From the NCBI GenBank assembly GCA_038852105.1, contig JAWCKK010000002.1, positions 42,621 to 106,620 of the forward strand: a stretch of 64,000 bases of DNA. Direction: 5' to 3'. The stretch comes from Thermoplasmata archaeon (GTDB lineage: Archaea; Thermoplasmatota; Thermoplasmata; UBA10834; DTMW01). Positions 362-38,739 of the stretch are shown here, piece by piece (position 1 is the first letter of the stretch; each line of letters starts with the position of its first letter). The position numbers were made by a program, and so were the translations under genes. A model generated the notes under the pieces. It did no database searches and was not told where the DNA came from. It saw only the letters and a list, made by a program, of their open reading frames with translations.

Positions 362-823
362 ATGAAAAAGATATGGGCCATGAAGAAAGAGACCGAGGCG
401 GTATCGCCTGTCATTGCAACCATTCTAATGGTGGCAATTACAGTCGTTCTCGCCGCAGTTCTCTACGTGATGGTGCTCGGTATCGGCGGAGGCGGCAATG
501 TCGCGCCGGCGGTAGGTCTGAGTTCCTCCGTATCCGGTGACGGCACGAAATGGATAGTCTCCGTCGTGAGCGTGCAGGGTACGGCTGCGGAGACCGATCT
601 GTATGTTAAGATAACGTACACGAACGGTACCCAGGCCATGTACAAGCAACTGAGCACTTTCACATCGGGAACAGCGGTCAGCGGTGTGACATACTACGAC
701 TCGACGACAAACGATGCCCTGGATTCGGGTGACTACTTCACCCTCGACAAGAGCACATACACTGCAGGCACGAAGTTCGAGTTGATACACACCAATGGTC
801 TGTCTGGTTCAGTGACGCTGTAA
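362..823 (+). CDS. Archaeal type IV pilin (DUF1628/Pilin_N family)
   Basis: Class III signal peptide MKKIWAMKKETEA|VSPVIATILMVAITVVLAAVLYVMV; GGAGG RBS upstream; Thr/Ser/Gly-rich globular domain. Confidence 0.9.
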   Translation: MKKIWAMKKETEAVSPVIATILMVAITVVLAAVLYVMVLGIGGGGNVAPAVGLSSSVSGDGTKWIVSVVSVQGTAAETDLYVKITYTNGTQAMYKQLSTFTSGTAVSGVTYYDSTTNDALDSGDYFTLDKSTYTAGTKFELIHTNGLSGSVTL

Positions 824-862
824 GCAAAGATCATCGTCATTGAACGCTATAAAAACCCCAAC

Positions 863-891
863 GATGAGCGGGCCGATACGGCCCCCTCATC
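863..891 (+). terminator. Stem-loop downstream of the pilin gene, possible terminator or mRNA-stabilising hairpin
   Basis: GATGAG-C-GGGCCG-ATA-CGGCCC-C-CTCATC: 12 bp stem with one C-C mismatch, followed by an AT/T-rich tract. Confidence 0.4.
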
Positions 892-974
892 AATTATCGA
901 ATTTTTCATTGGGTTATTCAATTACCATCGCTTGGGCCGAATGCTATTAATATCAACGGACAATCCTTCGTCCC

Positions 975-1193
975 GTGCCTAAAGTCTTATCGGAACCGGA
1001 AGCGGAGAAGTTCATAATCCAGCTGCTTTCCAGCAGAGGGAAGATGACGACGAGGGAGATCGAACTCATAGCACGAAAACAGGGGAAGCGGTGTCCCGAT
1101 GAGACCGTGCTATTCCTGACCAAACTGAGATCCAAAGGCAAGATAAAGGGGGAGCTGTCCCAGGAGAAGCGGGGATGGCTCTGGTGGGTCTAG
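975..1193 (+). CDS. Small winged-helix-like protein
   Basis: 72 aa, GTG start. Pattern FIIQLLSSRGKMTTREIE...CPDETVLFLTKLRSKGKIKG...GWLWWV fits a wHTH with a terminal beta-wing. Confidence 0.7.
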   Translation: MPKVLSEPEAEKFIIQLLSSRGKMTTREIELIARKQGKRCPDETVLFLTKLRSKGKIKGELSQEKRGWLWWV

Positions 1194-1627
1194 GGATTCC
1201 TCTCCGAGACGACCGTCGTCCTGGCAACCCTGTCCGAGTATTTCTGCCGCGCATCCGCTGTATCCACAACGAGACCAAGGAGCACATCTATAAGCAAAAA
1301 TGCCCCGAATATCTTCGTCAGGTTCCTCATCATCGCCTGGTAGGTCTGAATTCTCCCGTCCAGCGAGACGACCTTCAATCCGAATAGCTGTTTCCCGACG
1401 GTCGCGCCCTTTGTCTCTTCGAACACGGCGGAGTAGCACATCCAGAAGAACCCCATTATGACCCCGAACATGAACCAGTGCAATCCCTGCGTGAGGCTAA
1501 GAATCAACATTATGATGTATATCGGGACGAAAACGAGCACCACATCTATGAGCGCAGCGAACAGTCTGTAGACCCAGTGCATCTGCAGTTTCGGGTCCTG
1601 ACCTATCTGATCAAACCCGGTCGTCAT
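1190..1627 (-). CDS. RDD family membrane protein
   Basis: RLFAALID, GATVGKQLFGLKVV and terminal D-R-x-A-R-T-T-V-V motifs; hydrophobic segments. Start moved to MTTG (1627). Confidence 0.85.
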   Translation of the reverse strand: MTTGFDQIGQDPKLQMHWVYRLFAALIDVVLVFVPIYIIMLILSLTQGLHWFMFGVIMGFFWMCYSAVFEETKGATVGKQLFGLKVVSLDGRIQTYQAMMRNLTKIFGAFLLIDVLLGLVVDTADARQKYSDRVARTTVVSERNP

Positions 1628-1800
1628 GTCCTTACTCTCTCTTCGAATCCGATGCCGCCACTCAGATCGCCCGTCTATCATCACAGGTCAGCAACAAAGC
1701 TGTCATCATGGTGGCAAACCGATAACCGGAGCCATGGTTTATCATGTTTTCGTAGCCCGCGTCGATATGCTTTTCGAGGCGAGGCCCAATCACGCATCGA

Positions 1801-2325
1801 ATGGTATCCCTGTTCGCCATAATCGAGGGCGAGGACGATCCGAAGAAGTGCACCGCGAGAAAGCTCGTTCGGATGAAGCTAGCGAAGCTAATCGACGATC
1901 CCCGAAGACTTCCGGGAGAGGCGATAGTGTTGAACCCCATGGCCGAGAAGGCGCTATCTAGAGCGGACAGGAAGAGGGCGGAGGTTTCCGGCATTGTCGT
2001 GTTGGACTGTTCCTGGAAGCGCCTGGAGACTTTCCCAAAGATTAGGAAAGATTTGCGGCACCGCGCCCTCCCTTATCTCATCGCCGCGAACCCGGTTAAC
2101 TTCGGGCATCCGTGCACGTTGAGCAGCGCCGAGGCGTTGGCCGCCGCGCTCTGGATTATCGGTGAGAGAGAGCAGGCGACCCTCGTGATGTCGAAGTTCG
2201 GATGGGGACAGAGCTTCATCGCGCTCAACAGAGAACTGCTAGAGGCCTATGCTTCTGCTGCAGATAGCGCCGCTGTAATCGAAATTCAGAAACAGTACAT
2301 TCGGGAATCACGAGAGAAAGGGTAA
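1801..2325 (+). CDS. tsr3: rRNA aminocarboxypropyltransferase Tsr3 (DUF367)
   Basis: DDPKKCTARKL, VLDCSW, RALPYLIAANPVNFG, LSSAEALAAAL, FGWGQSF motifs. Confidence 0.92.
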   Translation: MVSLFAIIEGEDDPKKCTARKLVRMKLAKLIDDPRRLPGEAIVLNPMAEKALSRADRKRAEVSGIVVLDCSWKRLETFPKIRKDLRHRALPYLIAANPVNFGHPCTLSSAEALAAALWIIGEREQATLVMSKFGWGQSFIALNRELLEAYASAADSAAVIEIQKQYIRESREKG

Positions 2326-2415
2326 GGGAAGAAGCGCGATAATGAGATCAAGACAAAGTATTTACTCAGAATGTGATTTCCCTACCCCCTTCGACGGAAA
2401 TCGGGCGGATGCAGG

Positions 2416-4542
2416 ATGGAAGATAAGATAGACAGAAAGGATTTGGTCGCTCTCTGGCACGAGTTCTTCTCAGAGAAGGGCAGAAGAAACGAGCTCACCA
2501 CGATTGCCGATCTCTATCCCGACACGCGCTCCTACAACGTCGAGTTCTCCCAGGTGGAGCGTTTCAATCCCGACCTGGTTCAGTATCTTCTATCGAACCC
2601 GTCGGAATCCTTGGAGGCCGCGGAGGAAGCCATCCAGGAGATAATACCGCCTGAAAAGAAAGGGATCGCAAGGATTCATTTTCGCATATCGAAGCTGCCG
2701 AGGGACACGCGGGTCGAGATTCGAAAGATACGCGCGGAACATCTCGGGAAATTCATCTCGGTCGAAGGCCTCGTCAGGAAGGCGACGGAGGTCAGACCAA
2801 GGCTTGTCACGGCGAAATTCAAGTGCATGAGATGCGGCAAGGAGCTTTTCCTCGAGCAGGACGGGATGCAGTTCCGGGAACCTCTCGAGTGCGATCCCCA
2901 GCAAGGCGGATGCGGCAGGGGCGCGGGGTCGACCAGGTTCAAGCTGATCACGGAGGAATCCGTGTTCGTCGATACGCAGAAGATAGAGATCCAGGAGGCG
3001 CCCGAGGGGTTGCGGGGCGGTGCCGAGCCGCAGCGGCTGGTGGCGTTCGCCGAGGACGACATCACGGGACATATCTTCCCTGGGGACAGGGTGGTCCTGA
3101 ACGGCACGCTCAGGAGTGCGCAGAAGACAGGCGCTCAGACCAGAAGCACTCTGTTCGACATCAATCTGGAATTGAACTCGGCCGAATTCGAGGAGCACGA
3201 ATACGAAGAGATATCGATATCTCCTGAGGAAGAGCTCGCGATAAGAGAGATCGCATCGAGACCTGACGCTCTGAAACGAATTTCCGAGTCGATCTCCCCG
3301 ACCATCTACGGCTATTTCACCGAGAAGGAAGCTCTCGCGCTCCAGCTCTTCGGAGGCGTCCAGAAGGAGATGGACGACGGGACGCGCATCAGGGGCGACA
3401 TCCACATACTGCTCGTCGGAGACCCTGGTGTCGCGAAGACGATGATATTGAGATACATGGCCGATCTCGCCCCGAGAGGGATATACACCTCGGGGAAATC
3501 CAGCTCCGCGGCGGGCCTGACGGCCGCCGCGGTGAAGGACGAGTTCGGCGAAGGAAGATGGACGCTCGAGGCAGGCGCCTTGGTGTTGGCCGACAAGGGC
3601 ATTGCGTGCGTCGATGAGTTGGACAAGATGTCCCCTCAGGACAGATCCAGCATACACGAATCTCTCGAGCAGCAGACGGTCAGCGTCGCGAAGGCCGGAA
3701 TCACTGCAACACTGCAATCGAGATGCGCCGTCCTGGGTGCCGCGAATCCCAAGTACGGCAGGTTCGACGAGCATAAGACCATCGCGGACCAGATAGATCT
3801 CCCGCCGACATTGCTCAGCAGGTTCGACGTGATTTTCGCTATGACCGACAGGCCCAACGTGACGGAGGACACAAAGGTCGCCAAGCACATCCTCAGGGTT
3901 CACAGGCGCGGCGAGGTGCTGAAATACGATGATTTTAGCAAGATAGAGGGAGTCGACGCTTCCGAGGTAATGGCCGATGATGCCGACCTCGTCCCGAAAA
4001 TCCCGCCAGAGCTTCTGAGGAAGTACATCGCGTACAGCAAGAGGATAGCCCCGGTGCTGACGAACGAGGCCATGTCGGCTCTCGAGAACTACTACGTGAG
4101 GATTCGCAGCCAAGGAGAAGGAGAGGGGTCGTCCGTCCCGATCACCGCGAGGCAGCTGGAAGCGCTCGTCAGACTATCCGAGGCGAGCGCGAGAGCCAGG
4201 CTCTCTTCCATGGTGACCGAGGACGACGCGAAGCGAGCGATAGACATCGTCGAATACTTCTTGCAGAGGGTCGCGTCGGAAGGAGGCCGCCTGGACATCG
4301 ATATCATCGCGACGGGAATTCCCAGATCCCAGCTGGAGCATTTGCATATTCTCAAGAAGCTCATGAAGGATCTGGCGGATCCCGTCACCGGCGTGCCGGA
4401 GAACGAGCTGATCCAGCGTGCCGAATCGGAGGGCATATCCGCCGAGAAGGCGAAGGCGCTGATAAAGAAGCTTTCCGATCAGGGCGAGATATATCAGCCG
4501 CGCGCGGGATATTACAGGCTCGCCGCCGAGGAACGGTTATGA
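2416..4542 (+). CDS. mcm: Replicative helicase MCM
   Basis: Zn finger CMRC...CDPQQGGC, Walker A GDPGVAKT, Walker B DELDKM, AAANP-like GAANP, Arg finger SRFD, C-terminal winged helix. Confidence 0.97.
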   Translation: MEDKIDRKDLVALWHEFFSEKGRRNELTTIADLYPDTRSYNVEFSQVERFNPDLVQYLLSNPSESLEAAEEAIQEIIPPEKKGIARIHFRISKLPRDTRVEIRKIRAEHLGKFISVEGLVRKATEVRPRLVTAKFKCMRCGKELFLEQDGMQFREPLECDPQQGGCGRGAGSTRFKLITEESVFVDTQKIEIQEAPEGLRGGAEPQRLVAFAEDDITGHIFPGDRVVLNGTLRSAQKTGAQTRSTLFDINLELNSAEFEEHEYEEISISPEEELAIREIASRPDALKRISESISPTIYGYFTEKEALALQLFGGVQKEMDDGTRIRGDIHILLVGDPGVAKTMILRYMADLAPRGIYTSGKSSSAAGLTAAAVKDEFGEGRWTLEAGALVLADKGIACVDELDKMSPQDRSSIHESLEQQTVSVAKAGITATLQSRCAVLGAANPKYGRFDEHKTIADQIDLPPTLLSRFDVIFAMTDRPNVTEDTKVAKHILRVHRRGEVLKYDDFSKIEGVDASEVMADDADLVPKIPPELLRKYIAYSKRIAPVLTNEAMSALENYYVRIRSQGEGEGSSVPITARQLEALVRLSEASARARLSSMVTEDDAKRAIDIVEYFLQRVASEGGRLDIDIIATGIPRSQLEHLHILKKLMKDLADPVTGVPENELIQRAESEGISAEKAKALIKKLSDQGEIYQPRAGYYRLAAEERL

Positions 4543-9094: not shown

Positions 9095-9225
9095 CTGATT
9101 CCGTCTTCTAACTGATACTGGTGATAAAAAATTTTTGATTGGTCGGCGACAGGAAAAGCAGTGGCACTTTCCAAATCTTTTAATAATCACAACAGATAGG
9201 GCAATGAATTACACGGTTGAATCGA

Positions 9226-12200
9226 ATGATTGACAGGGCTGTAGAAAGGAAGTCAAAGGCGGAGATACTGTCGGCGTTGGACCCGCTAGTGGCGGAATGG
9301 TTCGGCAACCGCTTCGCCGATATCACGGAGCCCCAGGCCCTCGCGATCCCGCTCATAGAAGCCAGAAAGAACGTCTTGGTGTCCTCTCCGACCGGCTCCG
9401 GAAAGACATTGACCGCGTTCCTCTCAATCTTGGACAGGCTCTACAAGCTTCAGAAGGCCGGGGCTCTCGAGGATAGGATCTACGCCGTATACGTTTCTCC
9501 ATTGAAGGCGCTCGCGAACGACATAAACAAGAATCTTCTGGCACCTATCGAGGAGATGAACGCGCTCGCGCGTTCCCTCGGCGCAGAGGAGCTTCAGATA
9601 CGTGTCGCCGTCCGCACTGGCGATACGAGTTCCAGCGAGAGACAACGCCAGGCGGTGAAGTCCCCGCACATATTCATAACGACCCCGGAATCGCTGGCTC
9701 TCGTTCTTTCAACCCCAAAGTTTCGCAGGAAGTTCAGCAAGGTCGAATACGTCATCGTGGACGAGATTCACGAGATTTGCGATTCGAAAAGAGGGGTCAT
9801 GCTTTCTCTGAGCCTGGAACGGCTTCAGGAAGAAAACCCGAACGAGATAGCGCGCATAGGCCTCTCCGCAACCCAGGCGCCGATCGAAGAGATAGGCAAG
9901 TTCCTCGTGGGGCATAACGGGAATGATTGGCGCGACCTGAAGATAGCCGAGGTGCAGGGCCAGAAAGAGCTCGATCTGAAGGTGTTGTGCCAGGCGGAAG
10001 ACATCACCTCCCTCCCGTTCGAGATTGTAAACTCGAAGATGTACGATCTGCTCGTGGATCTCATCAACAAGCACAGGACGACCCTCGTCTTCACAAATAC
10101 CAGGAGCGGCACGGAGCACGTCGTCTTCAAGCTGAAGGAAAGGGGGATCACAGATATCGAGGCTCACCACGGCAGCATGAGCAAGGAGAGCAGGATATCC
10201 GTGGAGGACATGCTCAAGGAGGGGAAGCTCAAGGCTGTCGTGTCATCGACCTCGCTCGAACTGGGCATTGATATCGGATACATCGACCTCGTTTGTCAGA
10301 TCGGGTCCCCGAAATCCGTCGCCAAGGCGTTGCAGAGGATCGGTCGGTCAGGGCACGATGTCGGCAAGGCGTCCCAAGGGCGGTTGATAGCCTTCGACAA
10401 TGATGACTTGGTCGAATGCGCCGTCCTCTGTCGCGCGGCGCACCGGAAGCACATCGATAGGGTCACAATCCCGAAGAATAGTCTTGACGTTCTCGCGCAG
10501 ACGCTCGTCGGCATGTCCTTGGAGAAGAAATGGAAAATCGACGACGCCTACGCCCTGGTAACGAGGTCGTATTGCTACAGGGATATCGACCGCGAGAGCT
10601 TCGAGTCCGTCTTGAGATATCTCTCCGCGAGGGACGGTTTCGAAGGGGTGTATTCTAAGATATGGCTCGACGAGAAGGAGCGCGTGTTCGGGATGAAGCG
10701 CAGCTCTCGCCTGATATACTACCTCAACCAGGGCACGATACCCGAGGAGAGCTCGTACAAGGTTTTCTCGGAGAAAGGCGCGCCGATCGGCGACCTATCC
10801 GAGAAATTCGTGGAAAGGCTGTCGAGAGGGGACATCTTCGTCCTCGGCGGAAAATCGTTCGAGTTCATCAAGACGCACGGGATGAAAGTCTTCGTGAAGC
10901 ACGCGATGGGCCGGAAGCCGACGGTGCCTTCTTGGACGGGCGAGATGCTCCCGAGGAGCTTCGACCTGTCCGTCGAGATAGGCAGGTTCAGGAAGGAGCT
11001 CGAATCTCGGCTTGACACAAGCAGCGACCAGGAGATTCTGGACTGGCTCCAGAAGGATTTCGATATAGACGAGGGCGCGGCAAGGAGCATCCTGAACTAT
11101 TTCAAGGAGCAGAAGGCCGTCATCGGGATACCGACGGACAGCAGGCTTCTGATAGAGGGCTACGAGGACGAGGAGGGGAAATCGAACATAATCTTCCACT
11201 TCCCGTTCGGCCGGAGGGTGAACGACGCCCTCAGCCGCGCTTACGCCTTCAAGATATCCAACAAGTTCGGGTTCAACACGACCGTCTCGATAACCGACGA
11301 TTGCTTCATGATCGTCACGCCGAACAGGGTTCCGCTCGACGAGATTCCGCGCCTCGTCACCAGCGACGAGATAGAGTCCCTTCTCAGGGCGTCCTTGAGC
11401 GGCACGGAACTCCTCGGACAGCGATTCAGGCACTGCGCCTCGCGCAGCCTTATGATATTGAAGAACTACAGAGGGAAAGAGCTCTCCCTGTCTCGGCAGC
11501 AGATGCGCTCCCAGAAGTTGCTCGAGCTGCTCAAGGATGCTGACAGGTTCCCGGTGCTTATCGAGTCCTATAACGAGATATTGAACGAGGTATTCGACCT
11601 CGAGAATGCCGTGTCCGTGCTGAGGAGCATCGAGTCGAAGGAGCGGGAAGTTCTGGTTCAGGGATACGCCGACGCCCCTTCGCCGTTCTCGCATAACGTG
11701 CTGCTCGCCGGGATATCCGATGTCGTCCTGATGGAGGACAGGAGCTCGTTGCTCAGGCAGCTTCACAGGAAGGTGCTGGCCAAGGTGCTCGGGACGGAAG
11801 CGCTCTCGGAGTACAAGTTCGAGGAGGAGAAGGTCAGGCAGTATTTCGCCCGAAAGCTCGGCAAGGTATCGGACGAGCTCGAATTGCTCGGGCTGCTGCG
11901 AAAGACGGGGCCGCTCCAGCTGTTCAAGGAGAAGGGGTTCAGCGCCTCGGAGCTCTTGGGCATCCCGATCGAGAAGACAAGAGAGATGGCGGAGAGACTC
12001 CTCAAGCGCGGGATGATCAGATCCGTCTGGCTTTCGGACTCCTGCTGGGTCGCGTCAGAAGACAGGGATGAAATCTCGATAGCCCTCGAATCGGGCGGGG
12101 AGCTGCCGGACAACGCGAAGAAGCTCCTCGCGTATCTCGAGACGCCGAGGTCAGTGGCCGAGGTCGCCGCCAACCTGCAGCTGTCCAATGACGACGCGAC

Positions 12201-14616
12201 AGAACTGCTGTATATGCTCGAGCGCAAGTTCCTTGCAGAGCGCGTATACGGCTCGAGAAACGCCTTCAAGTGGAAGTCGTGCTCGCCCGCCTACGGCGAT
12301 AGGGAGCACGCGCGCGCCAATTTGATCGAACGACATCTTCGGATGTTCGCGCCTCTGACAGTCGAGGAAATCGCGTATCATTTCAGGCTCTCGGAGGGAG
12401 ACGTCAAGGCGGCTCTCTCTCAGCTGGAGTACGAAGGCAAGGTCGTTTCGGGGAAGTTCGTCATCGGGGAGGAGATCCAGTACATGCTCACGAACGATTA
12501 CGTCTCGCTCAGCTCGGAGGGGCAGGAAGCGTTCGATGAGGAGCACATACGCAGGTACCAGCTATGGAAGCAATTCAAGGATATCGAGTCCATCGACGAT
12601 TATTTCGAACGGTTCGGCGAGGCGGGCATGCTGTACGACATCTACCAGAGATTCCCCGATATGAATATCGAAGATTGGGTATCGATGCGCTCGTCGGGAA
12701 AGATACTCAGCGGGAGGTTCCTCCGGGGTCGGGTAAGATACGTTAGACAGAAGGATGCCGCATGCTTCGTGAAGCTGTATCGGTACCAGGATCCGTCCGA
12801 CTTCGACAACAGGGTGCTCAGGAAGATAGACGAGCTCGGCGGGGCTTCGATATTCGAGCTCGAGAAGGAGCTGGGGGAAGACCGCGAGACCATACGCGGT
12901 TCCCTCGAAGTCCTGGACCAGAACATGTACGTCGTGAGAGAATACACCGACGGAGAGGACTGGAGCGGTCTCAACATCTACAGGACGTTCACGGCAGGAG
13001 AGCCGGATGTGGACCCCGCGGAATGGCTGGTGGAGAAATTCCTCAGGAGTCACGGGCCGGTATCGATCGCCGCCATTCGGAGCTACACCGGGTTCGAAGT
13101 CGATCAGATCGTCGATATCCTCAAGCGCCTCGGAGCTTCGAAGGTGATCACGGGCCTGTCGAGACAGGAGCTCTTCGTGCTCGAAGATGATATTGAGCGC
13201 CTGAGAGAATTCAAGCCCGCACCCGACCCTATGCGGATACTCTCCCTGTACGATCCCCTGCTGGAGACCCGTTGGGCAGAGCTGACGAGCAGGTTCGGCG
13301 AAGGCTGGTACTTCCCGGTCGTCAAGGACGGCGTCATCATCGGCATGACGGAGATATGGCCGCTAAGCAGCTGCGTCGAGGTGCGCGAGGTGTCGCTCGA
13401 CAGGCAGACGAAGGAAGCCCTGTCGGAATTCCTTTCGGCGCTCGAGAAATTCGGGAAGTTCTTCGAATCCTACGGTATCGATGTCATCAGGATAAGGTCG
13501 GTCTTCGGAACCGATGTGAACTCGTTGGACGATGGGTTGGCTGCCGTTCTGAAGAGAGCAGGATACAGACTGCTGAACGGGATGATGGTCCGAGGCAAGG
13601 TGGTCGATAAGTGCTTCTCCGACTCGCAGCTTCTGACATATGTCTTCTCCAAACAGCACATCGCGAAATCGAGACAGTACGCAAGCGTCTCTGCTGCGTT
13701 CAGGGCGCTCGGAGGTCTGAGGAGCGAGGTGGAGGGGATCATCAGATCCAAGACGGACTCGACGGCAAAATCGCTCCATAAAAACGAGGAGACCTTTAGG
13801 GGCATCGGCGCGCCGCCGTTCCTCATGCTCATGCCGATGGCCAGCGCAAGACTGTACCGCACCGCGAAGGATCCGCAACTCGACGAGCAGATGAGCTCCC
13901 TGCTCGAGGTCATCTCGAAAAACGTCCCGATGACGAAGGACCAGATATTCGAACTTTCCCCGCTCGGGCCGTCTGAGGCCGCGCAGGCTTTCAGGAAACT
14001 GTACCAGAAGACCCTTATAGTCACGGACCACAGCGGCAAGTATCGCGCCGTCGAACCGGCGGAAATGACGGTCTCCGAGGCGAGGAAGGCGCTTGTCAGA
14101 AAGGCGTTCGAGATGTTCGGAGTGTTCTCCGCCGAAGGGCTGTCTCAATATCTCCATCACATCTTCGGGATGCGCGAATTGCGGAGGGCGTTGAGGGAGC
14201 TCGAGTCCGAAGGGTTCCTTTCCAAAGGATATCTCAGGGAGAAAAGCGACACCCTCTATTGGGTGATACGATCGGATCTGGGACGGATCGAGAAATCGAG
14301 GTTCTCGGAAGGATTCGTTCTCGCGCCGCAAGATAGATTGCTGGTCTATCTGAGGGATGCATGGGGGCTTAAATTGGGGGAAGCGGGGCAGTATCTGATA
14401 TTCGACGGAATAGAGCCCATCGGGAAATTCCGGGCGAAGATAGACAGGCACGAGATCTCGATTTGGGACTCAGAAGTGAGCGACAGGGCGAACGAGATAC
14501 TGAAGGAGTTCCTCGCGAAGATCGGCAGAAGCATGCAAAAGGATCAAGAGAAACGCTTGAGCGAATGGGAGATAACCGATTTCTTCGAGAAGACGAACCT
14601 GTTCGCGAAAGAGTAG
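9226..14616 (+). CDS. lhr: Long Lhr-family DEAD/H helicase (~1796 aa) with an extended winged-helix / AlkZ-like C-terminal region
   Basis: SPTGSGKT, SPLKALAND, TTPESL, DEIH, GLSAT, HHGSM, SLELGID, QRIGRSGH; about 900 aa of extra C-terminal sequence. Confidence 0.92.
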   Translation: MIDRAVERKSKAEILSALDPLVAEWFGNRFADITEPQALAIPLIEARKNVLVSSPTGSGKTLTAFLSILDRLYKLQKAGALEDRIYAVYVSPLKALANDINKNLLAPIEEMNALARSLGAEELQIRVAVRTGDTSSSERQRQAVKSPHIFITTPESLALVLSTPKFRRKFSKVEYVIVDEIHEICDSKRGVMLSLSLERLQEENPNEIARIGLSATQAPIEEIGKFLVGHNGNDWRDLKIAEVQGQKELDLKVLCQAEDITSLPFEIVNSKMYDLLVDLINKHRTTLVFTNTRSGTEHVVFKLKERGITDIEAHHGSMSKESRISVEDMLKEGKLKAVVSSTSLELGIDIGYIDLVCQIGSPKSVAKALQRIGRSGHDVGKASQGRLIAFDNDDLVECAVLCRAAHRKHIDRVTIPKNSLDVLAQTLVGMSLEKKWKIDDAYALVTRSYCYRDIDRESFESVLRYLSARDGFEGVYSKIWLDEKERVFGMKRSSRLIYYLNQGTIPEESSYKVFSEKGAPIGDLSEKFVERLSRGDIFVLGGKSFEFIKTHGMKVFVKHAMGRKPTVPSWTGEMLPRSFDLSVEIGRFRKELESRLDTSSDQEILDWLQKDFDIDEGAARSILNYFKEQKAVIGIPTDSRLLIEGYEDEEGKSNIIFHFPFGRRVNDALSRAYAFKISNKFGFNTTVSITDDCFMIVTPNRVPLDEIPRLVTSDEIESLLRASLSGTELLGQRFRHCASRSLMILKNYRGKELSLSRQQMRSQKLLELLKDADRFPVLIESYNEILNEVFDLENAVSVLRSIESKEREVLVQGYADAPSPFSHNVLLAGISDVVLMEDRSSLLRQLHRKVLAKVLGTEALSEYKFEEEKVRQYFARKLGKVSDELELLGLLRKTGPLQLFKEKGFSASELLGIPIEKTREMAERLLKRGMIRSVWLSDSCWVASEDRDEISIALESGGELPDNAKKLLAYLETPRSVAEVAANLQLSNDDATELLYMLERKFLAERVYGSRNAFKWKSCSPAYGDREHARANLIERHLRMFAPLTVEEIAYHFRLSEGDVKAALSQLEYEGKVVSGKFVIGEEIQYMLTNDYVSLSSEGQEAFDEEHIRRYQLWKQFKDIESIDDYFERFGEAGMLYDIYQRFPDMNIEDWVSMRSSGKILSGRFLRGRVRYVRQKDAACFVKLYRYQDPSDFDNRVLRKIDELGGASIFELEKELGEDRETIRGSLEVLDQNMYVVREYTDGEDWSGLNIYRTFTAGEPDVDPAEWLVEKFLRSHGPVSIAAIRSYTGFEVDQIVDILKRLGASKVITGLSRQELFVLEDDIERLREFKPAPDPMRILSLYDPLLETRWAELTSRFGEGWYFPVVKDGVIIGMTEIWPLSSCVEVREVSLDRQTKEALSEFLSALEKFGKFFESYGIDVIRIRSVFGTDVNSLDDGLAAVLKRAGYRLLNGMMVRGKVVDKCFSDSQLLTYVFSKQHIAKSRQYASVSAAFRALGGLRSEVEGIIRSKTDSTAKSLHKNEETFRGIGAPPFLMLMPMASARLYRTAKDPQLDEQMSSLLEVISKNVPMTKDQIFELSPLGPSEAAQAFRKLYQKTLIVTDHSGKYRAVEPAEMTVSEARKALVRKAFEMFGVFSAEGLSQYLHHIFGMRELRRALRELESEGFLSKGYLREKSDTLYWVIRSDLGRIEKSRFSEGFVLAPQDRLLVYLRDAWGLKLGEAGQYLIFDGIEPIGKFRAKIDRHEISIWDSEVSDRANEILKEFLAKIGRSMQKDQEKRLSEWEITDFFEKTNLFAKE

Positions 14617-15522: not shown

Positions 15523-17160
15523 TTGCCTGGTGCAACGAGCGGCAGACTTTGCCCTATTTGCGATTCGCCGATAGAGGCCGGAGCAAAGAAATGCTCATTC
15601 TGTGGCACCGACCTCACCATGTTTGAGGAAGAAGCGAAGAGCGCGAAAAGGCAAGAAGGTAGGCTGATTAGAGAAGAATATCAACCTGCGGCCCAAGCGC
15701 CGGCAGCGGCTCCTCCTAAGGACTCGACCCCGCGGGTCGAGCCAGTAGCCGCTCCATCGGCCGCAGAGGAAGAGGCGATTTATCAATGTCCCGCCTGTGG
15801 CAAGAACGTCAAGGAAAGCGATAATGTCTGTCCTCATTGCGGAGCGATTTTCTCTGAGGAGGCTCAGTTCGAATGCCCTGCCTGCCATACGCTCGTGAAT
15901 GCCGACGCGACTAAATGTCCTGGCTGTGGGGCGATATTTGTCGAGGAAGAGGCCGCTGCACAGGCGGCGGCTCCGGCGGCGCCAGCAGTCGAACCGAAAA
16001 AGGCGGAGCCTGCGCAACCGCCGACTCCGACTTTGCCTGCGACGGCCAAGGTCGGAGAAGACGAGGAGATGAAGAAAATAATCTCCCGGATCAAGGAAAC
16101 GAGGGAAATGGAGAAAGAGGCTCCGAAGAAGAAACCTGCCAAGAAGGGATTCGGGGGTTTGTTCAAGTCAATTCTGCCGAGGGGAGAAGCAGCGGAGAAA
16201 AAGGAAGCGCCTGCAAAAGAGGCTCCGAAGCCTCCCGAAAAGGCCCCGACGCCGGCAGAGGCTGTTTCTGCAAAGAAACCCACCGCGCCCGCAGAGCCGA
16301 CCAAGGTCGAGCCCTCGGCTGCGCCTGGGGCGGCAACCGTCGCGCAGGAGCCGGTGCAGAAAAGGCAATGGCCGACCGACCCGAGAGAGCAAGGAAAGGA
16401 GCTGGCTCGTCTCGTGGCAGAGGTCAGGGCGTTGCTCAGCATCGCAATGGAGCACTCGATAATGATTGACGAGACGAAAGCGCTCCTCGATAGGGCGATA
16501 ACTGCAGGTCGCGAGAGGCAGTTCATATTGGCTCTCGACACGATAGCCGAGGGACAGGCGAAGCTAAACAACCAATTGAGGGAATACGTCGGCGCGAACA
16601 TGGCGTCGATCACGGAAGAGATCGCCGTCGCGAAGAAGCTCGGCGGGGACACGTCGAGGGCGGAGATATTCCTGAAGGAGGCTTCCAGGGTCGCCGAGAA
16701 GGCCGATTATCAGGCGTCGCTAGTGTTCATAGACAAGGTTCGGAACGAGCTTGCTCCGGTGACCGGTCAGTACAACGAGTTGAAGAATTCCCTCCGGAAG
16801 TTCGAAAGGCTCGTCAAGGATTCCCGCGTCATCGGGATAGACAACGAGCCTCTCAAGAAGGACTACGATACCGCGAAGGCGGCTTTCGATGCGCTCGATT
16901 TCGCAAAAGCTGAGGGGATTATCAAGAAAAAGACAGCAGAGATACTCGAACAGATACCTGAGAGGATGACGAAGGAAATCGAGAAGGCGAAGCAGCTCCT
17001 CATCGAGGCGAAGATGAAGACGGACGTAGGGATGGCCCCTCAGATATCGATTCTCAAGTCCGCAATTCGGAACCTGCAGGATAAGAAATACCTCGAAGCG
17101 TTGGCGGATCTCAAGACGTTCAAGAAGGAGATGAAGAAACTGCTCAGCCAGTCGGCTTGA
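15523..17160 (+). CDS. Triple zinc-ribbon protein with Pro/Ala/Lys-rich linker and four C-terminal helical repeats
   Basis: CPIC-x10-CSFC, CPAC-x10-CPHC, CPAC-x10-CPGC; TTG start behind GGAGG; no signal peptide or TM segment. Confidence 0.85.
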   Translation: MPGATSGRLCPICDSPIEAGAKKCSFCGTDLTMFEEEAKSAKRQEGRLIREEYQPAAQAPAAAPPKDSTPRVEPVAAPSAAEEEAIYQCPACGKNVKESDNVCPHCGAIFSEEAQFECPACHTLVNADATKCPGCGAIFVEEEAAAQAAAPAAPAVEPKKAEPAQPPTPTLPATAKVGEDEEMKKIISRIKETREMEKEAPKKKPAKKGFGGLFKSILPRGEAAEKKEAPAKEAPKPPEKAPTPAEAVSAKKPTAPAEPTKVEPSAAPGAATVAQEPVQKRQWPTDPREQGKELARLVAEVRALLSIAMEHSIMIDETKALLDRAITAGRERQFILALDTIAEGQAKLNNQLREYVGANMASITEEIAVAKKLGGDTSRAEIFLKEASRVAEKADYQASLVFIDKVRNELAPVTGQYNELKNSLRKFERLVKDSRVIGIDNEPLKKDYDTAKAAFDALDFAKAEGIIKKKTAEILEQIPERMTKEIEKAKQLLIEAKMKTDVGMAPQISILKSAIRNLQDKKYLEALADLKTFKKEMKKLLSQSA

Positions 17161-19321
17161 GCACCTCGAACTCCCTCTCGAGGATTGAAATCTCCTGCGG
17201 CTTCAACGTTCCCGGGCTGACGGAAATCATCATTATCGAGTCGCTCTCGGAGAATTCGTCTATCAACCGCCGCAGGAATCTCAGCACCCCGTCGAAGCTC
17301 GTGTTGCTTATCAGGTATTGGAGCCCATCTATCAGCAATATCCCTTTCTCCCCTTGACCCAAGAACTCCTCTATCGTATGGACTATCATCTCCAGGCTCG
17401 GCGGGATCGTCCTCTCGTTCTTGCTCTCTTTGTCCGTTAGCCAGATTATCTCCCCGCTGATGCCGTAATCGCTTCTCACCTTGCCGGGGTTCATCCTCGT
17501 TATCTCCAATCCGCGGTAGCCCTCTTTTATCATCCGAGCCAAGAGCAGGTTGCTGTGCGTCGGCCGATCTTCCTCGATCAGATAGCTATGCCCGGGTTTG
17601 ACCTCCAGCTCGTGAACTCCCTCCTTCTCGGGCGCACCCAGGGTCGGCGTCAAGACCTCTTTCGCAAGTTGCAGGTCGATATCGAGCTTCATGACCGTCG
17701 CAAAGGCTATCAGCCGATTCAACGCGGCCTCCAGCTCCCGGACGTTCGATTCTATCCTGTCAGAGATGAATTCGATCACTTGAGCCGGTATTTCCCTGCC
17801 TTTCTCCTTCGCCTTCCTTTTGAGTATCTCTACCCTCGTCTGCTTGTCAGGCGGCTGGATGTCCGCTATCATCCCGCCCTGTATCTTCGCTGCCAGATGC
17901 TCCGACAGCTTGGGTATTTCCTTCGGCAGGCGGTCGCTCGCGATGACTACTTGTCCGCCGTTGCGGAGAGTGTCTTCGATGAGGTACAAAAGTTCGACCT
18001 GTGCGGCCTCCTTGCCCGCTAAGAATTGGAAGTCGTCGATCATGAACAGCTTCTTGCGTCTCAACCTGTCTCTGAGGCCGTGAACATCGTTCCTTTTGAT
18101 AGCGAGGTCTAGTTCTTCAGCGAACTTCTCCGCCGGAAGAAGCACTATGCTATCCTTCGAACTCTTGGCCATTATCTGCCTTGCAATGGCATTGAGCAGA
18201 TGGGTCTTGCCAAGACCGGACTTTCCGTACAGGAAGAGCGGGTTGTAGGCCTTATCAGGCGCATGGGCGACGGCAACAGCCGCGGCATATGCGAACTTGT
18301 TGCTCTTGCCGACGACGAAAGACTGGAATCCCATGCCCTCCGTCAGCGCGAGCAAGGAACTCTCCTCGCCCTTGCACTTTGGACAAGATCCGTCTCCGTC
18401 AAGCACGGAGCCGCACTTCTCGCATGTCGGCACTTCCTGCTTCGGTATTTCGCCCCTCTGGTATTGGAGTATCAGATCGTACAGGTCTCCCGTCTTCGCA
18501 TCCCGTTGCTTCCTTTTCAGATCCTCTTCTATCTTCTTCTCGGCTATCTTGATCTCCTCTATATGCCGCCTTATTTTCTCCTTAAGGGACACGAAATCGG
18601 CCTTTATGTTGTCTATATCCGAGGGGTCGCTCAGGCGAAGCTTCAGTGCCTGAATCTCGTTCTCGAATCCTACCTGAGGCAGGCTATCCAGCTGTTTCTC
18701 CAGCTTCTTCAGGTCATCTATTTTTTCTTTATACTCCGCGAGCGCCTTCTTCGCTCCGGCTTTGCTCTGTCTGAACAGCTTCTCCAACTCATCGACGACG
18801 TATCCCTGACGTCTCAGCTCGAGAATCTCCCCGAGGACCGGGTCTGTCTCCTCGGATGGCGGGGGTTCGATTTCCTCGGGCCTCTCCTTTTCCTTTGTCT
18901 CGGCGACGCGCCGTTCTTCTGGCTGTATGAGGCTCTTCAAATCTATGCTGTCCATCTCGAGCAATTTTGCGTCCGGGAATCTGCGATCGAACTCCTCTTT
19001 CGGGACCCTGCTGTGGAGCTCTATTACCGCCTGCCTGTCCTGAGCATCCTCCAGAATGAACCTCATCGATTTGTCGCCCGCATAGATCCTCTTTATCTCT
19101 CTGGGCTCCTTCTTCTCGAATTGGTATATCGACATCGTCGGCATGCCCTGATCGACGACCAGATATCCTGTCGAACTCATCGACTCCTTCTTCAGGATGA
19201 CCTTGACGTATCCCGTGAAAGTGTACTGTTTCAAATCCGAAAGTATGCCGGCCAGAACGCCAGGCCCGCCTCTCGCAGTCCTGACGACTATCCCCTCGGG
19301 TATTCGAAGCTCGGCAGACAA
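17144..19321 (-). CDS. Multidomain protein: DUF2226-like N-terminus, coiled coil, zinc ribbon, DnaA-type AAA+ domain and DUF835 (KaiC-like)
   Basis: FQSFVVGKSNKFAYAAA, YNPLFLYGKSGLGKTHLLNAI, MIDDFQFLAGK, ASDRLPKEI, ADIQPPDKQTRVEIL, SNVRELEAALNRL are diagnostic of DnaA domain III. The C-terminus GHSYLIEE...ITRMNP...IIWLT...LLIDGLQYLI...F..VLRFL is DUF835-like. No DnaA domain IV HTH is present. Confidence 0.9.
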   Translation of the reverse strand: MSAELRIPEGIVVRTARGGPGVLAGILSDLKQYTFTGYVKVILKKESMSSTGYLVVDQGMPTMSIYQFEKKEPREIKRIYAGDKSMRFILEDAQDRQAVIELHSRVPKEEFDRRFPDAKLLEMDSIDLKSLIQPEERRVAETKEKERPEEIEPPPSEETDPVLGEILELRRQGYVVDELEKLFRQSKAGAKKALAEYKEKIDDLKKLEKQLDSLPQVGFENEIQALKLRLSDPSDIDNIKADFVSLKEKIRRHIEEIKIAEKKIEEDLKRKQRDAKTGDLYDLILQYQRGEIPKQEVPTCEKCGSVLDGDGSCPKCKGEESSLLALTEGMGFQSFVVGKSNKFAYAAAVAVAHAPDKAYNPLFLYGKSGLGKTHLLNAIARQIMAKSSKDSIVLLPAEKFAEELDLAIKRNDVHGLRDRLRRKKLFMIDDFQFLAGKEAAQVELLYLIEDTLRNGGQVVIASDRLPKEIPKLSEHLAAKIQGGMIADIQPPDKQTRVEILKRKAKEKGREIPAQVIEFISDRIESNVRELEAALNRLIAFATVMKLDIDLQLAKEVLTPTLGAPEKEGVHELEVKPGHSYLIEEDRPTHSNLLLARMIKEGYRGLEITRMNPGKVRSDYGISGEIIWLTDKESKNERTIPPSLEMIVHTIEEFLGQGEKGILLIDGLQYLISNTSFDGVLRFLRRLIDEFSESDSIMMISVSPGTLKPQEISILEREFEVLKPTG

Positions 19322-19461: not shown

Positions 19462-19560
19462 GCCACTGTAGCTCAGGGGTAGCGCGCTCCTCACGCGCAC
19501 CGAAAGAGCGGCGGTTTCGTAAACCGCAGGCCGGGGGTTCAAAACCCTCCAGTGGCTCCA
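19462..19560 (+). tRNA. tRNA-Thr(CGT) with encoded CCA and a ~22-24 nt intron in the D-loop
   Basis: Acceptor GCCACTG/CAGTGGC, discriminator T, CCA; anticodon arm GCGGT-TTCGTAA-ACCGC; T arm GGGGG-TTCAAAA-CCCTC; D stem GCTC/GAGC interrupted by an insertion at about 19482-19505. Confidence 0.9.
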
Positions 19561-33188: not shown

Positions 33189-35003
33189 TCACTTCGACGC
33201 CGATGGTTGAGTCTCTATCCTGATGCTCTTGAGCGGCGGAGCAGGCGGCGGCGTCGGGCTTTCCGGCAGCTTCTCCGTCGCCGCCATCTTTGCCCGGATC
33301 TCCTCCATCAGCTTGTCTGGGTACTTGTAGTACGCCGATACCACCCTGGCGACCTCGCGGTAATTGACGTTCCCCATCTTCTTCAGGTACTCCAGGACCT
33401 CGACCCTGCGGCGTATCTCCCGTTCCATCTCCCTCGGGGTCCAGTTGCGCGCCATGCGTATCTTCTCGTAGACGTAGCTATGGCCGCTGTAGTTGAACGT
33501 GTCGTCCGCGGGGTTCCAGGTGAACACGGAGTTCGTGATGAGCTCGTTTGTCTCGGGGTCTATCCCGACTATTTCGGTCAAGCCCTTGACCCGCCTTGTC
33601 ATCTTCGTTCCGACCTTCACCTGCGCCTGCAATAACACAATATTGAGTGCCGTCACCAGTGCTCTCGGGAGATTGATCGGGTCGTTCTCCATCCTGTGCA
33701 CCATCGACTGAACATCTTCTGCATGGAAGGTAGAGTACGCGGTCTTCCCAGTGGCCATCGCCTGAAACACGACGTACGCTTCCTTGCCTCTTACCTCACC
33801 GACCATCAGATACTGTGGCCGCTGCCTCATCGCAGTGGTCAGAAGATCGAACATGTCTATCTCGCCGGGCGCCTTGCCGGTTATCGGGCTCTTGCCGCCG
33901 AATCCCTCTCTCGTCAGCGAGGGGATCCAGTTCTCGTGCGGCAGGTTGAGCTCGCGCGTGTCCTCGATGCTCACGATTTTCATCTGAGGAGGTATGAAAA
34001 GGAGAACCGCGTTGAGAGTGGTCGTCTTTCCGGACGCAGTGCCTCCGCAGACGAGCATCGATTGGCCGTGCTCGATTGCCGCCCAGAGGTATGCCATCAT
34101 GTCCGTGCTCATCGTCTTGAATCTCAAAAGGTCCAAGGGCGTGAACGGGTTTTCCTTGAACCGTCTCACCGTGAACGAGGACCCCTTCTTCGTGACGTGC
34201 TTCCCGAGCGTCGCCTGAAGCCTCGAGCCGTCGGGGATCGTGGCGTCGAGCATCGGCTTTGCAACGGATATGTGCTTGCCGCACTTCTGTGCCAGCCATA
34301 CGACGAATGCGTCAAGGTCCTCTTCTCTGTCGAACATCAGGTTGGATCGTATCGAGCCGTATTTCCTATGATATATGTAGAACGGTATCTTGCATCCGTC
34401 GCACGACAGGTCTTCCACGTTCGGATCGGTCATCATGATATCGATTTTCCCGTATCCGATGAAATCCCTTATGAGGTAGTACATGACGCGCTCCTTCGAT
34501 GTCGGGTGAAGGTCGATCCCCACTTCCTTCATGATCTGTCCGACCTTGGCTCTCAGGTACTTCTCTTTGTCTTCCGTTGACTCCCATTCTATCGTCTCGA
34601 TGCTGGCGATAAGGAGGCGCTTGAGGAGGTCCAAGACCTCGGATTCGTCCTTCGAAATCTTCGGCTCGATGACCTCGTACAGATACTCGTTGGCTATGTT
34701 GTCGTACTTGATCCTCACGTAAGAATAGCCCTCCTTGATGGTGACTATCTCCACCTCGTCCACCTTCGGATCGATTATCGGGGGTATCTCCGTCACCTTC
34801 GCGGTGGAGCCCATATCCAGATTCTTCGGGAGGGCGATCTTCATGGGCTTGTGCTTGAACTTCAGGAGGAATGATATGTAGCCCGCCATCAGCCTCGATT
34901 TCGCATCTATTTTCTCGGTCGGAGCCGGGGCTACGGGTTGGGTCTCGGTAACCGTCTCTTCGACCGCCGATGTCTGTTCCATGGTAGTTGCTTCTTCTGT
35001 CAT
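33189..35003 (-). CDS. Type IV pilus / type II-IV secretion ATPase (VirB11/FlaI-like), paralog 2
   Basis: EDLSCDG, LDATIPDGSRLQ, SFTVRRF, Walker A GGTASGKTT, SIEDTREL, RQRPQYLMVGEVRG, TFHA. Confidence 0.93.
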   Translation of the reverse strand: MTEEATTMEQTSAVEETVTETQPVAPAPTEKIDAKSRLMAGYISFLLKFKHKPMKIALPKNLDMGSTAKVTEIPPIIDPKVDEVEIVTIKEGYSYVRIKYDNIANEYLYEVIEPKISKDESEVLDLLKRLLIASIETIEWESTEDKEKYLRAKVGQIMKEVGIDLHPTSKERVMYYLIRDFIGYGKIDIMMTDPNVEDLSCDGCKIPFYIYHRKYGSIRSNLMFDREEDLDAFVVWLAQKCGKHISVAKPMLDATIPDGSRLQATLGKHVTKKGSSFTVRRFKENPFTPLDLLRFKTMSTDMMAYLWAAIEHGQSMLVCGGTASGKTTTLNAVLLFIPPQMKIVSIEDTRELNLPHENWIPSLTREGFGGKSPITGKAPGEIDMFDLLTTAMRQRPQYLMVGEVRGKEAYVVFQAMATGKTAYSTFHAEDVQSMVHRMENDPINLPRALVTALNIVLLQAQVKVGTKMTRRVKGLTEIVGIDPETNELITNSVFTWNPADDTFNYSGHSYVYEKIRMARNWTPREMEREIRRRVEVLEYLKKMGNVNYREVARVVSAYYKYPDKLMEEIRAKMAATEKLPESPTPPPAPPLKSIRIETQPSASK

Positions 35004-35014
35004 TCACTTTCACC

Positions 35015-35938
35015 TCAGGCGAACAGTAGCCTCAATATGAAGAAGGCGGCGAGCAGCATTATGAACGAATGCCTCAAGCCGATTGCCACGCTGCCTCTCT
35101 GAAGCACTCCGGCCATGACGCCGTCTCCCACAGCGTGCGCAAGCGTGGCGAGCAGGAACGCGAATTCCACCGACGGTATGACTGACACATCGATGCCCGA
35201 CATCGACCCCATCTGCGACGAGCCGATTTTCTCCGTCGCCTCCTGCAACTGCGAGCCTGCCAGCTGCATCTGAGGCAAGAAAGAAGCGGTCAAGATGACT
35301 ATCGTCGCGATGAACACGAAGAACGAGATGTAGATGACGGCGACGTACGTGCTCATCACGATCGCCTTCTCGGTCTCGGTGAGTATCGTCTCCCTGGCAT
35401 CGTGCGCCACCATCGTAAGGACGTCCGCGACATTCCCGCCCGCATCGCTCGCCTTCATGATAATCGATGTCATCCGCTGCACGAGAGGGGTCTTGACTCT
35501 CTCAGCGAATAGCCTGAGCGCCTCGTTCGCCGGGACTCCCCATTCTATCTGCGCGGCCATCTTCTTTATCTCCGGCGTGAGCGCCCCGTACCGCCCCGAA
35601 GACGCGACGACTATCGCCTCTGCGAGAGTCATGCCGAACCTTCCCGCTTCGGCCACATCTCTAAGGAAATCCGGTAGCCTGTTCTCGATCTGCTTAATCC
35701 TCTTCCATCTGGCAGACATGTAGAACCCGTAAGGTCCGACGAAGACCAACATGCCGATGATTATCCAGTCTATCCAGTCGAAGGGCAGATCCATGAATTT
35801 CATGTAGTCGAGCAGTGCCAGCAGTATGGTGAACACGAAAACGCCGAATGAAATACCGAGTATCTGCTTCGATCTATCGACCTTTTCCGATCCCGGTATT
35901 ATCAGCGCACCGCCTTTCTGCGCCTTTGTTTTCGGCAT
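35015..35938 (-). CDS. Type II secretion system F / TadC-like platform membrane protein
   Basis: LPDFLRDVAE..GMTL.EAI...YGAL..EI...I.WG...EAL..F; GG....VL; TM helices; G...G...GLRH motif. Confidence 0.9.
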   Translation of the reverse strand: MPKTKAQKGGALIIPGSEKVDRSKQILGISFGVFVFTILLALLDYMKFMDLPFDWIDWIIIGMLVFVGPYGFYMSARWKRIKQIENRLPDFLRDVAEAGRFGMTLAEAIVVASSGRYGALTPEIKKMAAQIEWGVPANEALRLFAERVKTPLVQRMTSIIMKASDAGGNVADVLTMVAHDARETILTETEKAIVMSTYVAVIYISFFVFIATIVILTASFLPQMQLAGSQLQEATEKIGSSQMGSMSGIDVSVIPSVEFAFLLATLAHAVGDGVMAGVLQRGSVAIGLRHSFIMLLAAFFILRLLFA

Positions 35939-38731: not shown

Positions 38732-38739
38732 CTTTCACC

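Follow-up and report, generated by a model that had tools for sequence, protein, structure and literature searches.

A bacterial-type DnaA domain III embedded in a conserved DUF835 fusion protein of Thermoplasmata archaea

The window analysed here, a 64,000-nucleotide stretch of contig JAWCKK010000002.1 (positions 42,621 to 106,620, forward strand) from the genome assembly GCA_038852105.1 of a Thermoplasmata archaeon, encodes a fusion protein whose middle part is a genuine DnaA-type domain III, rather than an Hda, DnaC or IstB module. Domain III of DnaA is characteristic of the start of replication in bacteria, and the textbook view is that archaea have none. From its N terminus, the protein comprises an N-terminal domain, a helical rod, a zinc ribbon, the DnaA domain III and a DUF835 domain. 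Because the ATP motifs are conserved, the DNA-related parts have been lost and the partner genes are conserved, we favour, with a probability of roughly 55%, a reading of the fusion as a non-replicative ATP switch or assembly subunit that would act at the cell envelope, partnered by a KaiC-like ATPase and zinc-ribbon adaptors.

The AAA+ core of the fusion protein scored above the Pfam gathering cut-off (23 bits) of Bac_DnaA PF00308 across its whole length (E = 1.8e-48, 165.2 bits, residues 328–486, model positions 3–161 of 162). By BLASTP, residues 332–566 aligned with residues 138–372 of Escherichia coli DnaA at 42% identity (0 gaps, E = 5e-56); a preliminary description of the window had noted a gapless alignment for the Walker A to Walker B segment, and it extends over the whole of domain III. 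Identity to bacterial DnaA domain III was 42–47%, without gaps over 235 residues. An AlphaFold2 model of the fusion protein was built on 103 orthologues and reached a mean predicted local distance difference test score (pLDDT) of 88.6 over the 725 residues. Foldseek superposed the central part of this model on Bacillus subtilis DnaA domain III (8bv3_A) with a TMt of 0.95 and a root-mean-square deviation of 1.4 Å over 232 columns, and the model predicts both the initiator-specific insertion and the lid of the DnaA-type fold. The motifs on which the preliminary description had relied were all recovered, namely FQSFVVGKSN, GKSGLGKT, LFMIDD, ASDR, NVRELEAAL and CEKC-x9-CPKC (residues 300–316).

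No other AAA+ family examined gave a better score than DnaA. The DnaA model TIGR00362 matched residues 279–566 with 274.2 bits, covering only model positions 99–343 of 437, and the whole fusion protein stayed below the equivalog cut-off of 343.9 bits. The Hda model TIGR03420 gave 98 bits (residues 326–557) against a cut-off of 194.8, the Pfam Hda_lid family matched weakly at residues 495–537, and E. coli Hda was 24% identical to the fusion AAA+ domain by BLASTP. Hda structures (3bos, 5x06) were second-tier fold matches in Foldseek, with E values of about 1e-11, far behind DnaA. IstB (NCBIfam) reached 41 bits over residues 361–463, and IstB matches overall, at 21–41 bits, centred on the P-loop; with E. 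coli DnaC, BLASTP gave no significant alignment beyond the P-loop. The fusion shares the AAA+ initiator/loader clade with DnaC and IstB, being far closer to DnaA, and the earlier assignment of a DnaA AAA+ core is borne out.

In bacterial DnaA, domain I makes the contacts for DnaB and for oligomerisation, and domain IV is the helix-turn-helix that binds DnaA boxes. Both domains had been described as missing, and indeed neither DnaA_N (PF11638) nor Bac_DnaA_C (PF08299) was matched by Pfam in the fusion protein, while jackhmmer, started from E. coli domain IV, recovered this domain from 115 bacterial sequences and from no archaeal fusion. Thus, what the fusion has in common with bacterial DnaA domain III (PF00308; 8BV3, 8BTG, 2Z4R, 2HCB/3R8F) is the nucleotide motifs, the lid and the fold, together with the box VII arginines, which most members of the fusion family have also kept. 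It differs in lacking domain I, the domain II linker and domain IV, in the replacement of the residues corresponding to E. coli V211 and R245, in a lysine finger in the window's clade, in the setting of the module between the N-terminal domain, rod and zinc ribbon on one side and DUF835 on the other, and in a host that uses Orc1/Cdc6. Hda/HdaA, a DnaA paralogue consisting of domain III only, is a regulator rather than an initiator. The fusion resembles it in having a DnaA-type AAA+ module without a DNA-binding domain, which in Hda serves protein–protein regulation; unlike the fusion, Hda carries no extra domains, and the source archaeon has no bacterial DnaA that could be its target, given that PF00308 was matched only once in the genome.

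Residue conservation was surveyed in 103 orthologues, 27 from the window's clade and 76 from outside it. Walker A Lys372 and Thr373 and Walker B Asp429 and Asp430 were invariant, and sensor I Asp463 (of ASDR) and sensor II Arg528 were each present in 101 of the 103. The position of the E. coli arginine finger, R285, was Arg in 74 of the 76 orthologues outside the window's clade and Lys in all 27 within it. Similarly, the R281 position was Arg in 72/76 outside the clade and Ser, Gln or His inside it. The window protein, with Lys479 and His475, therefore has neither of these two box VII arginines of an initiator DnaA. Nor does it have the two contacts to single-stranded DNA (ssDNA): the positions of V211 and R245 are D/E/G and A/M/L, respectively, in the window's order, and Asp405 and Ala439 in the window protein. 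The most distant members keep these contacts in part, with a hydrophobic residue at V211 in 13 of 21 and Arg at R245 in 10 of 21. Given this pattern of conservation and replacement, the module is built for ATP binding and, in most lineages, for hydrolysis, and has drifted away from the ssDNA-binding surface of DnaA; the window's lineage has also given up the canonical trans-acting arginine.

An artefact has next to no chance of explaining these observations, be it a chimeric assembly, contaminating bacterial DNA in the bin, a pseudogene, a mobile element or a defence element. It is true that the source is a metagenome-assembled genome (MAG) in 28 contigs that is 88% complete, and that the gene is missing from several closed-genome lineages of the same class. 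Against this, the identical co-linear architecture was found in more than 100 independent assemblies, three of them single-contig genomes, which argues against the chimeric junction that had been considered earlier. The same contig encodes Orc1/Cdc6 (461 bits), MCM and other archaeal genes, and those relatives that have been named belong to Thermoplasmata, 'Euryarchaeota' or Ca. Sysuiplasma, so that the contig is archaeal and not bacterial. Furthermore, the gene occurs once per genome in a stable syntenic position, is uninterrupted by stop codons and keeps invariant Walker A and B motifs, and its TTG start agrees with orthologues that begin M/L-S/V-T-E/D-LRIPEG. PADLOC returned P-loop noise only, and a defence-system reading was dropped; a scan for sigma-70 promoters and terminators was set aside as uninformative in an archaeal host. 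As far as the sequences can tell, chimera, contamination and pseudogene are excluded, because the co-linear architecture occurs once per genome in 41 of 41 genomes searched from the same order (including the three closed ones) and in 115 of 201 genomes of the class.

The domains surrounding the AAA+ module were also examined. The C-terminal DUF835 assignment held (PF05763, E = 8e-28, 97.4 bits at a cut-off of 33.1, residues 588–718). This domain has no P-loop, with GHSYLIEEDRPTHS at the expected Walker A site and no GxxGxGK[ST], and Asp665–Gly666 is conserved across orthologues. A single DUF835 sequence had no sequence match in the Protein Data Bank (PDB). The order of helices and strands in the AlphaFold2 model is compatible with a KaiC/RecA-like fold, and assignment to the KaiC branch rests on the label 'DUF835 (iKaiC)' given to DUF835 in archaeal signalling proteins, including those of Thermoplasmata (Galperin et al. 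2018, PMC5847659). In the REC-DUF835 response regulators of that study DUF835 stands, as in the fusion, at the C terminus behind an upstream input or switch module, which is a receiver domain in those proteins and a DnaA-type AAA+ ATPase here. In the source genome the N-terminal domain, the rod and the DnaA module each occur once, whereas ten open reading frames (ORFs) carry DUF835, the other copies being an isoleucyl-tRNA synthetase (IleRS) fusion and about eight small proteins. These ten ORFs, one of them fused to IleRS, suggest that DUF835 is a general docking or regulatory domain. The IleRS-DUF835 protein itself (1374 aa, contig C4:46294-50415, minus strand, locus L127) contains tRNA-synt_1, Anticodon_1, DUF5915, a weak HhH match and a DUF835 of 121 bits, and almost every genome of the order has an ORF of 1330–1450 aa with DUF835 at its end.

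The N-terminal domain was modelled alone with a pLDDT of 87, and neither a fold search (best E 8e-3, TM 0.22) nor a sequence profile search of the PDB gave a match. It had been called DUF2226-like, a likeness that proved to be sub-threshold only, and membership was rejected. PF09987 did not match the window's domain at E ≤ 1 and was weakly present in 11 of 25 orthologous domains (best E 0.0039); its sole genomic match in 31 relatives was the N-terminal domain of an orthologue, at 16.6 bits (cut-off 22) over model positions 3–79 of 252. The segment previously described as a coiled coil corresponds to a predicted helical unit with a 56-residue helix, and hidden Markov model (HMM) slices of our own alignment showed that this unit of ~100 residues recurs up to 8 times in related giant proteins. 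The cysteines of the zinc ribbon are at least 90% conserved in close relatives and gone in many distant orthologues.

Genomic context is the main functional evidence. The fusion gene converges with a partner gene encoding zinc ribbons and helical repeats, with which it overlaps by 17 nt at the 3' ends (17144–17160), the two being separated elsewhere by 0 to about 50 nt. This partner is adjacent to the fusion in all genomes of the same order and in at least 29 genomes outside it (coordinates checked, counted by hand), including family f4, and this adjacency extends over most of the class. Its linker contains a basic amphipathic motif, KKGFGGLFKSIL in the window protein; orthologues in the order have KKGLFGGLFKRKK-like versions and more distant ones (E)LSFAERMKAMKEG-like versions. 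Further along the window lies a block of three genes for a KaiC-like ATPase, a coiled-coil protein with two zinc ribbons, which adjoins the KaiC-like gene in compact clusters, and a surface protein whose C-terminal ribbons match those of the partner at 32–44% identity. An orthologue of the KaiC-like gene was found as a single copy, 50–89% identical, in 114 of the 201 class genomes, of which 108 had both this gene and the fusion, 7 the fusion only, 6 the KaiC-like gene only and 80 neither, counts that are phylogenetically non-independent and inflated by shared ancestry within one class. Five loci of other families (L103, L105, L108, L111 and L114) carry a compact cluster of Surface, ZnR380, KaiC, ZnCC and DnaA-DUF835, the two halves of which are 7–8 kb apart in the window's order, separated by ThiC-GyrB-GyrA. 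Two further observations concern these proteins. The helical-repeat domain of the partner recurs several times in a 1520-aa protein of the source genome (C5:13729-18288, minus strand, L129) with CARDB and a C-terminal Prok-RING/zinc finger, similar ORFs of ~1500 aa being found across the class. A second KaiC-like protein of the window (760 aa, 41228-43510, minus strand) has a KaiC domain at residues 522–720 and matches to DUF7504/DUF7090.

Taken together, these data can be arranged in a working model. By analogy with DnaA, ATP binding to the DnaA-type module would lead to head-to-tail self-association, and in most of the family the arginine finger would then allow hydrolysis in trans; because this finger is a lysine in the window's clade, ATP there is probably hydrolysed slowly or not at all, and the ATP-bound state would persist for long. 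The helical rod may serve as a spacer and the N-terminal domain as a docking part. On account of co-occurrence, gene clustering and split-gene forms (described below), we infer that DUF835, as a presumably inactive KaiC-like domain, docks the fusion on the KaiC-like ATPase or on further proteins with DUF835, and the shared ribbon modules and the basic amphipathic motif suggest that the zinc-ribbon partners tether the assembly both to the membrane and to the surface protein's tail. Besides the fusion, the proposed module would thus consist of the KaiC-like ATPase, zinc-ribbon adaptors, among them the product of the convergent gene, and a giant surface protein whose zinc-ribbon tail would lie in the cytoplasm, and signalling or assembly related to the cell surface or to pili is the best-supported context for its biological output. 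The use as a nucleotide-dependent switch or oligomerisation module that had been proposed from the sequence is consistent both with the conservation of the ATP motifs and with the replacement of residues that contact ssDNA.

Several observations weigh against this model. The predicted template modelling score (pTM) of the AlphaFold2 model was only 0.50, which leaves the relative arrangement of the domains unfixed, and hhalign, run on thin alignments, detected no similarity between DUF835 and the neighbouring KaiC-like family (probability 0.2). The partner is not adjacent to the fusion in families f8 and f16, the fusion and the KaiC-like gene are unlinked in families f13, f16, f18, f22, f28 and f29, and the shared ancestry behind the co-occurrence counts reduces their weight. 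Finally, the fusion gene of the window's order lies between Lhr and GyrB/GyrA, with MCM (window 2416–4542) within 15 kb and orc1 36–46 kb away.

This last point bears on a role in DNA transactions, with the fusion acting as a DnaA-derived ATP filament, aimed by zinc ribbons in place of domain IV, in origin control with Orc1/Cdc6 and MCM, in repair or in segregation. Zinc ribbons frequently bind nucleic acids, most family members have an intact arginine finger and box VII, and the partial retention of V211 and R245 in distant members would likewise suit such a role. However, besides the absence of domains I and IV, the ssDNA-contact positions are acidic or small in the window protein and its order, and the presence of Orc1/Cdc6 and MCM, together with a single PF00308 match in the genome, counts against a part in replication. 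Moreover, the proximity to orc1 (36–46 kb in seven genomes of the order: the source genome, G006, G017, G018, G011, G012 and G014) reflects one shared synteny block that is lost outside the order, the distance being 455 kb in G070, and a replication link by position was therefore rejected as conserved evidence. The partners that remain linked to the fusion after synteny breaks are the KaiC-like ATPase, the zinc-ribbon proteins and the surface protein, not replication genes, and elsewhere the DnaA module is fused to a pilus ATPase. On balance, we regard a retained DNA role as improbable. Independently of this question, the Lhr helicase of the window (1799 aa, 9217-14616, plus strand) has a long AlkZ-like and winged-helix C-terminal extension and is syntenic across the order.

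The wider family was explored by slicing the alignment into HMMs. An exhaustive search of representative proteins gave 21,634 matches at E ≤ 0.001, presumably bacterial DnaA for the most part, and ~175 of 270 proteins examined combine the DnaA module with DUF835, down to 30% identity. At E ≤ 1e-15, PF00308 matched in 53 of the 401 genomes that were sampled throughout the phylum and in none of four model archaea used as controls. Variants include shorter forms without the rod, the family f4 architecture of N-terminal domain, rod and DUF835 from which the AAA+ module has been lost, and proteins of 1250–1420 aa with the N-terminal domain, 7–8 repeats of the ~100-aa helical unit, DnaA domain III and zinc ribbons. 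In other classes of the phylum there is a split form, in which DnaA domain III ends one gene and DUF835 is encoded by a second gene directly behind it. Giant relatives of 1344–1424 aa with the N-terminal domain, 7–8 helical repeats and DnaA domain III were seen at L116:2021-6292 (plus strand) and L120:3862-7893 (minus strand); the former, the one giant scanned with Pfam, also has C-terminal zinc ribbons, and the latter has as its neighbour (827–3841, minus strand) a 1005-aa copy without the AAA+ module. Tandem DnaA domains III without domain IV were seen in about 35 clusters of 500–700-aa proteins (P0144, P0162, P0168 and others).

Uses of the DnaA module away from DNA are indicated by its placement behind 7–8 rod repeats, by a fusion to a T2SSE ATPase (L119) and by a 1990-aa protein that joins MshEN to two DnaA domains III (P0150). 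The last two also bear on a narrower version of the switch or assembly reading, according to which the fusion specifically controls either a machine of the type IV pilus kind or how a giant surface protein is displayed, DUF835 acting on a PilB/ArlI-type ATPase as the KaiC-like ArlH acts on ArlI. The T2SSE/PilB-type fusion shares its operon with two T2SSF genes, DUF7289 and an archaeal pilin, the surface protein belongs to the compact clusters, and in the window a type IV pilus operon with two T2SSE ATPases (33189–39729) follows directly after the block of KaiC-like, zinc-ribbon and surface-protein genes. That version nevertheless seems unlikely. Only a single genome showed the T2SSE fusion, and in the loci examined pilus genes do not border the DnaA-DUF835 fusion. 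The KaiC-like neighbour reaches just 21.5 bits with ArlH, whose cut-off is 215, and so is a different protein, and the presence of DUF835 on unrelated proteins such as IleRS suggests a general docking domain.

The same variety of architectures allows a bolder form of the switch or assembly reading, which we put forward tentatively, as the less probable of the two. Thermoplasmatota may have captured or retained the oligomerisation engine of DnaA and turned it into a family of ATP-gated scaffolds, in which the engine is spaced by 0 to 8 helical repeats of spectrin length, occurs as a tandem pair, is joined to an inactive KaiC domain or separated from it, or is combined with a pilus ATPase in one protein. 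The window protein would then form an ATP-dependent open spiral or filament beneath the membrane that couples the surface protein and the zinc-ribbon adaptors to a KaiC-type ATPase.

Concerning the origin of the module, trees of domain III were computed with FastTree and an IQ-TREE quick search, with Hda as a long-branch outgroup and, as bacterial rows, 77 bacterial DnaA loci from a contig scan that was dominated by the Walker A pattern (and returned only 3 archaeal loci). These trees were poorly resolved (about 90 branches, 9–10 of them starred). A constraint that divides bacterial DnaA from all archaeal-type modules by a single split was not rejected by the approximately unbiased test and was better than the free quick tree (p-AU 0.846), two odd bacterial rows having been placed on the bacterial side of the constraint after inspection of the first tree. 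No donor lineage emerged, and the attempt to name one by phylogeny was abandoned. Of the earlier proposal that the module was acquired from bacteria, what stands is that transfer is the parsimonious reading of the distribution; the trees give it neither direction, donor nor date.

The coordinates of the features discussed are collected in Table 1. Next to the fusion gene, ARAGORN called a 99-nt tRNA-Cys(GCA) at 19462–19560 (plus strand), described earlier as a tRNA-Thr(CGT) with a D-loop intron; its length suggests an intron or insert.

Table 1 Features of the fusion gene, its neighbours in the window and related loci in other genomes (window positions unless a locus is named).
Feature	Position	Strand	Details and basis
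DnaA-DUF835 fusion gene	17144..19321	-	725 aa, TTG start; intact ORF, co-linear full-length orthologues
N-terminal alpha/beta domain (aa 1-125)	18947..19321	-	AlphaFold2; sub-threshold likeness to first ~80 positions of DUF2226
Helical rod unit (aa 160-295), long helix 233-288	18437..18844	-	AlphaFold2 secondary structure; own HMM slices
Zinc ribbon CEKC-x9-CPKC (aa 300-316)	18368..18430	-	Sequence
DnaA domain IIIa, AAA+ core (aa 328-486)	17864..18340	-	Pfam, BLASTP, motif alignment, Foldseek
Walker A GKSGLGKT	18203-18226	-	Motif in fusion protein
Walker B LFMIDD	18032-18049	-	Motif in fusion protein
Box VII EHLAAKI, Lys479 at arginine-finger position	17885-17887 (Lys479 codon)	-	
DnaA domain IIIb, lid (aa 487-566)	17624..17863	-	Sensor II NVRELEA with Arg528
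DUF835 domain (aa 577-722)	17156..17593	-	Pfam, conserved columns
Partner gene, 545 aa	15523..17160	+	Three zinc ribbons, disordered linker, four helical repeats; Pfam, adjacency, orthologues
KaiC-like single-domain ATPase, 256 aa	26448..27218	+	Intact Walker A GPPGSMKT; Pfam KaiC E=2.4e-32; co-occurrence
Coiled-coil protein, 380 aa	27242..28384	+	Two zinc ribbons, basic C-terminal tail; putative module member
CARDB surface protein, 1517 aa	28489..33042	+	CARDB x3, DZR 1320-1365, zinc ribbon 1444-1465; putative module member
Split DnaA-III / DUF835 genes	L115:2065-3480 and 3565-4494	+	
Split DnaA-III / DUF835 genes	L125:2353-3954 and 455-1669	-	
DnaA-III-T2SSE fusion, 813 aa	L119:3856-6297	+	DnaA-III 234 bits; genome G234, another class of phylum

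Both central domains are established families, and the proteins are already named automatically, as 'DnaA/Hda family protein', 'DUF835 domain-containing protein' or 'chromosomal replication initiator protein DnaA'. The statement that no protein of this architecture has been characterised holds in so far as no description or characterisation was found in the literature that could be searched; the architecture itself is neither rare nor unannotated. The gene has gone unstudied probably because the lineages that carry it appear to be uncultured. What appears to be undescribed is a true DnaA engine that is a core, non-initiator archaeal gene and has radiated into many architectures. A close relative of DnaA domain III, 42–47% identical and of the same fold, is a core gene in much of an archaeal class, which offers a natural test of the ATP-dependent oligomerisation engine of DnaA away from the origin. 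The finding also corrects the widespread annotation of such proteins in archaeal MAGs as replication initiators, and it provides a first functional handle on the DUF835 and zinc-ribbon proteins that are abundant in Thermoplasmata. If the family does consist of ATP-gated scaffolds, it would represent a new archaeal cytoskeletal or signalling system derived from a replication-initiator fold.

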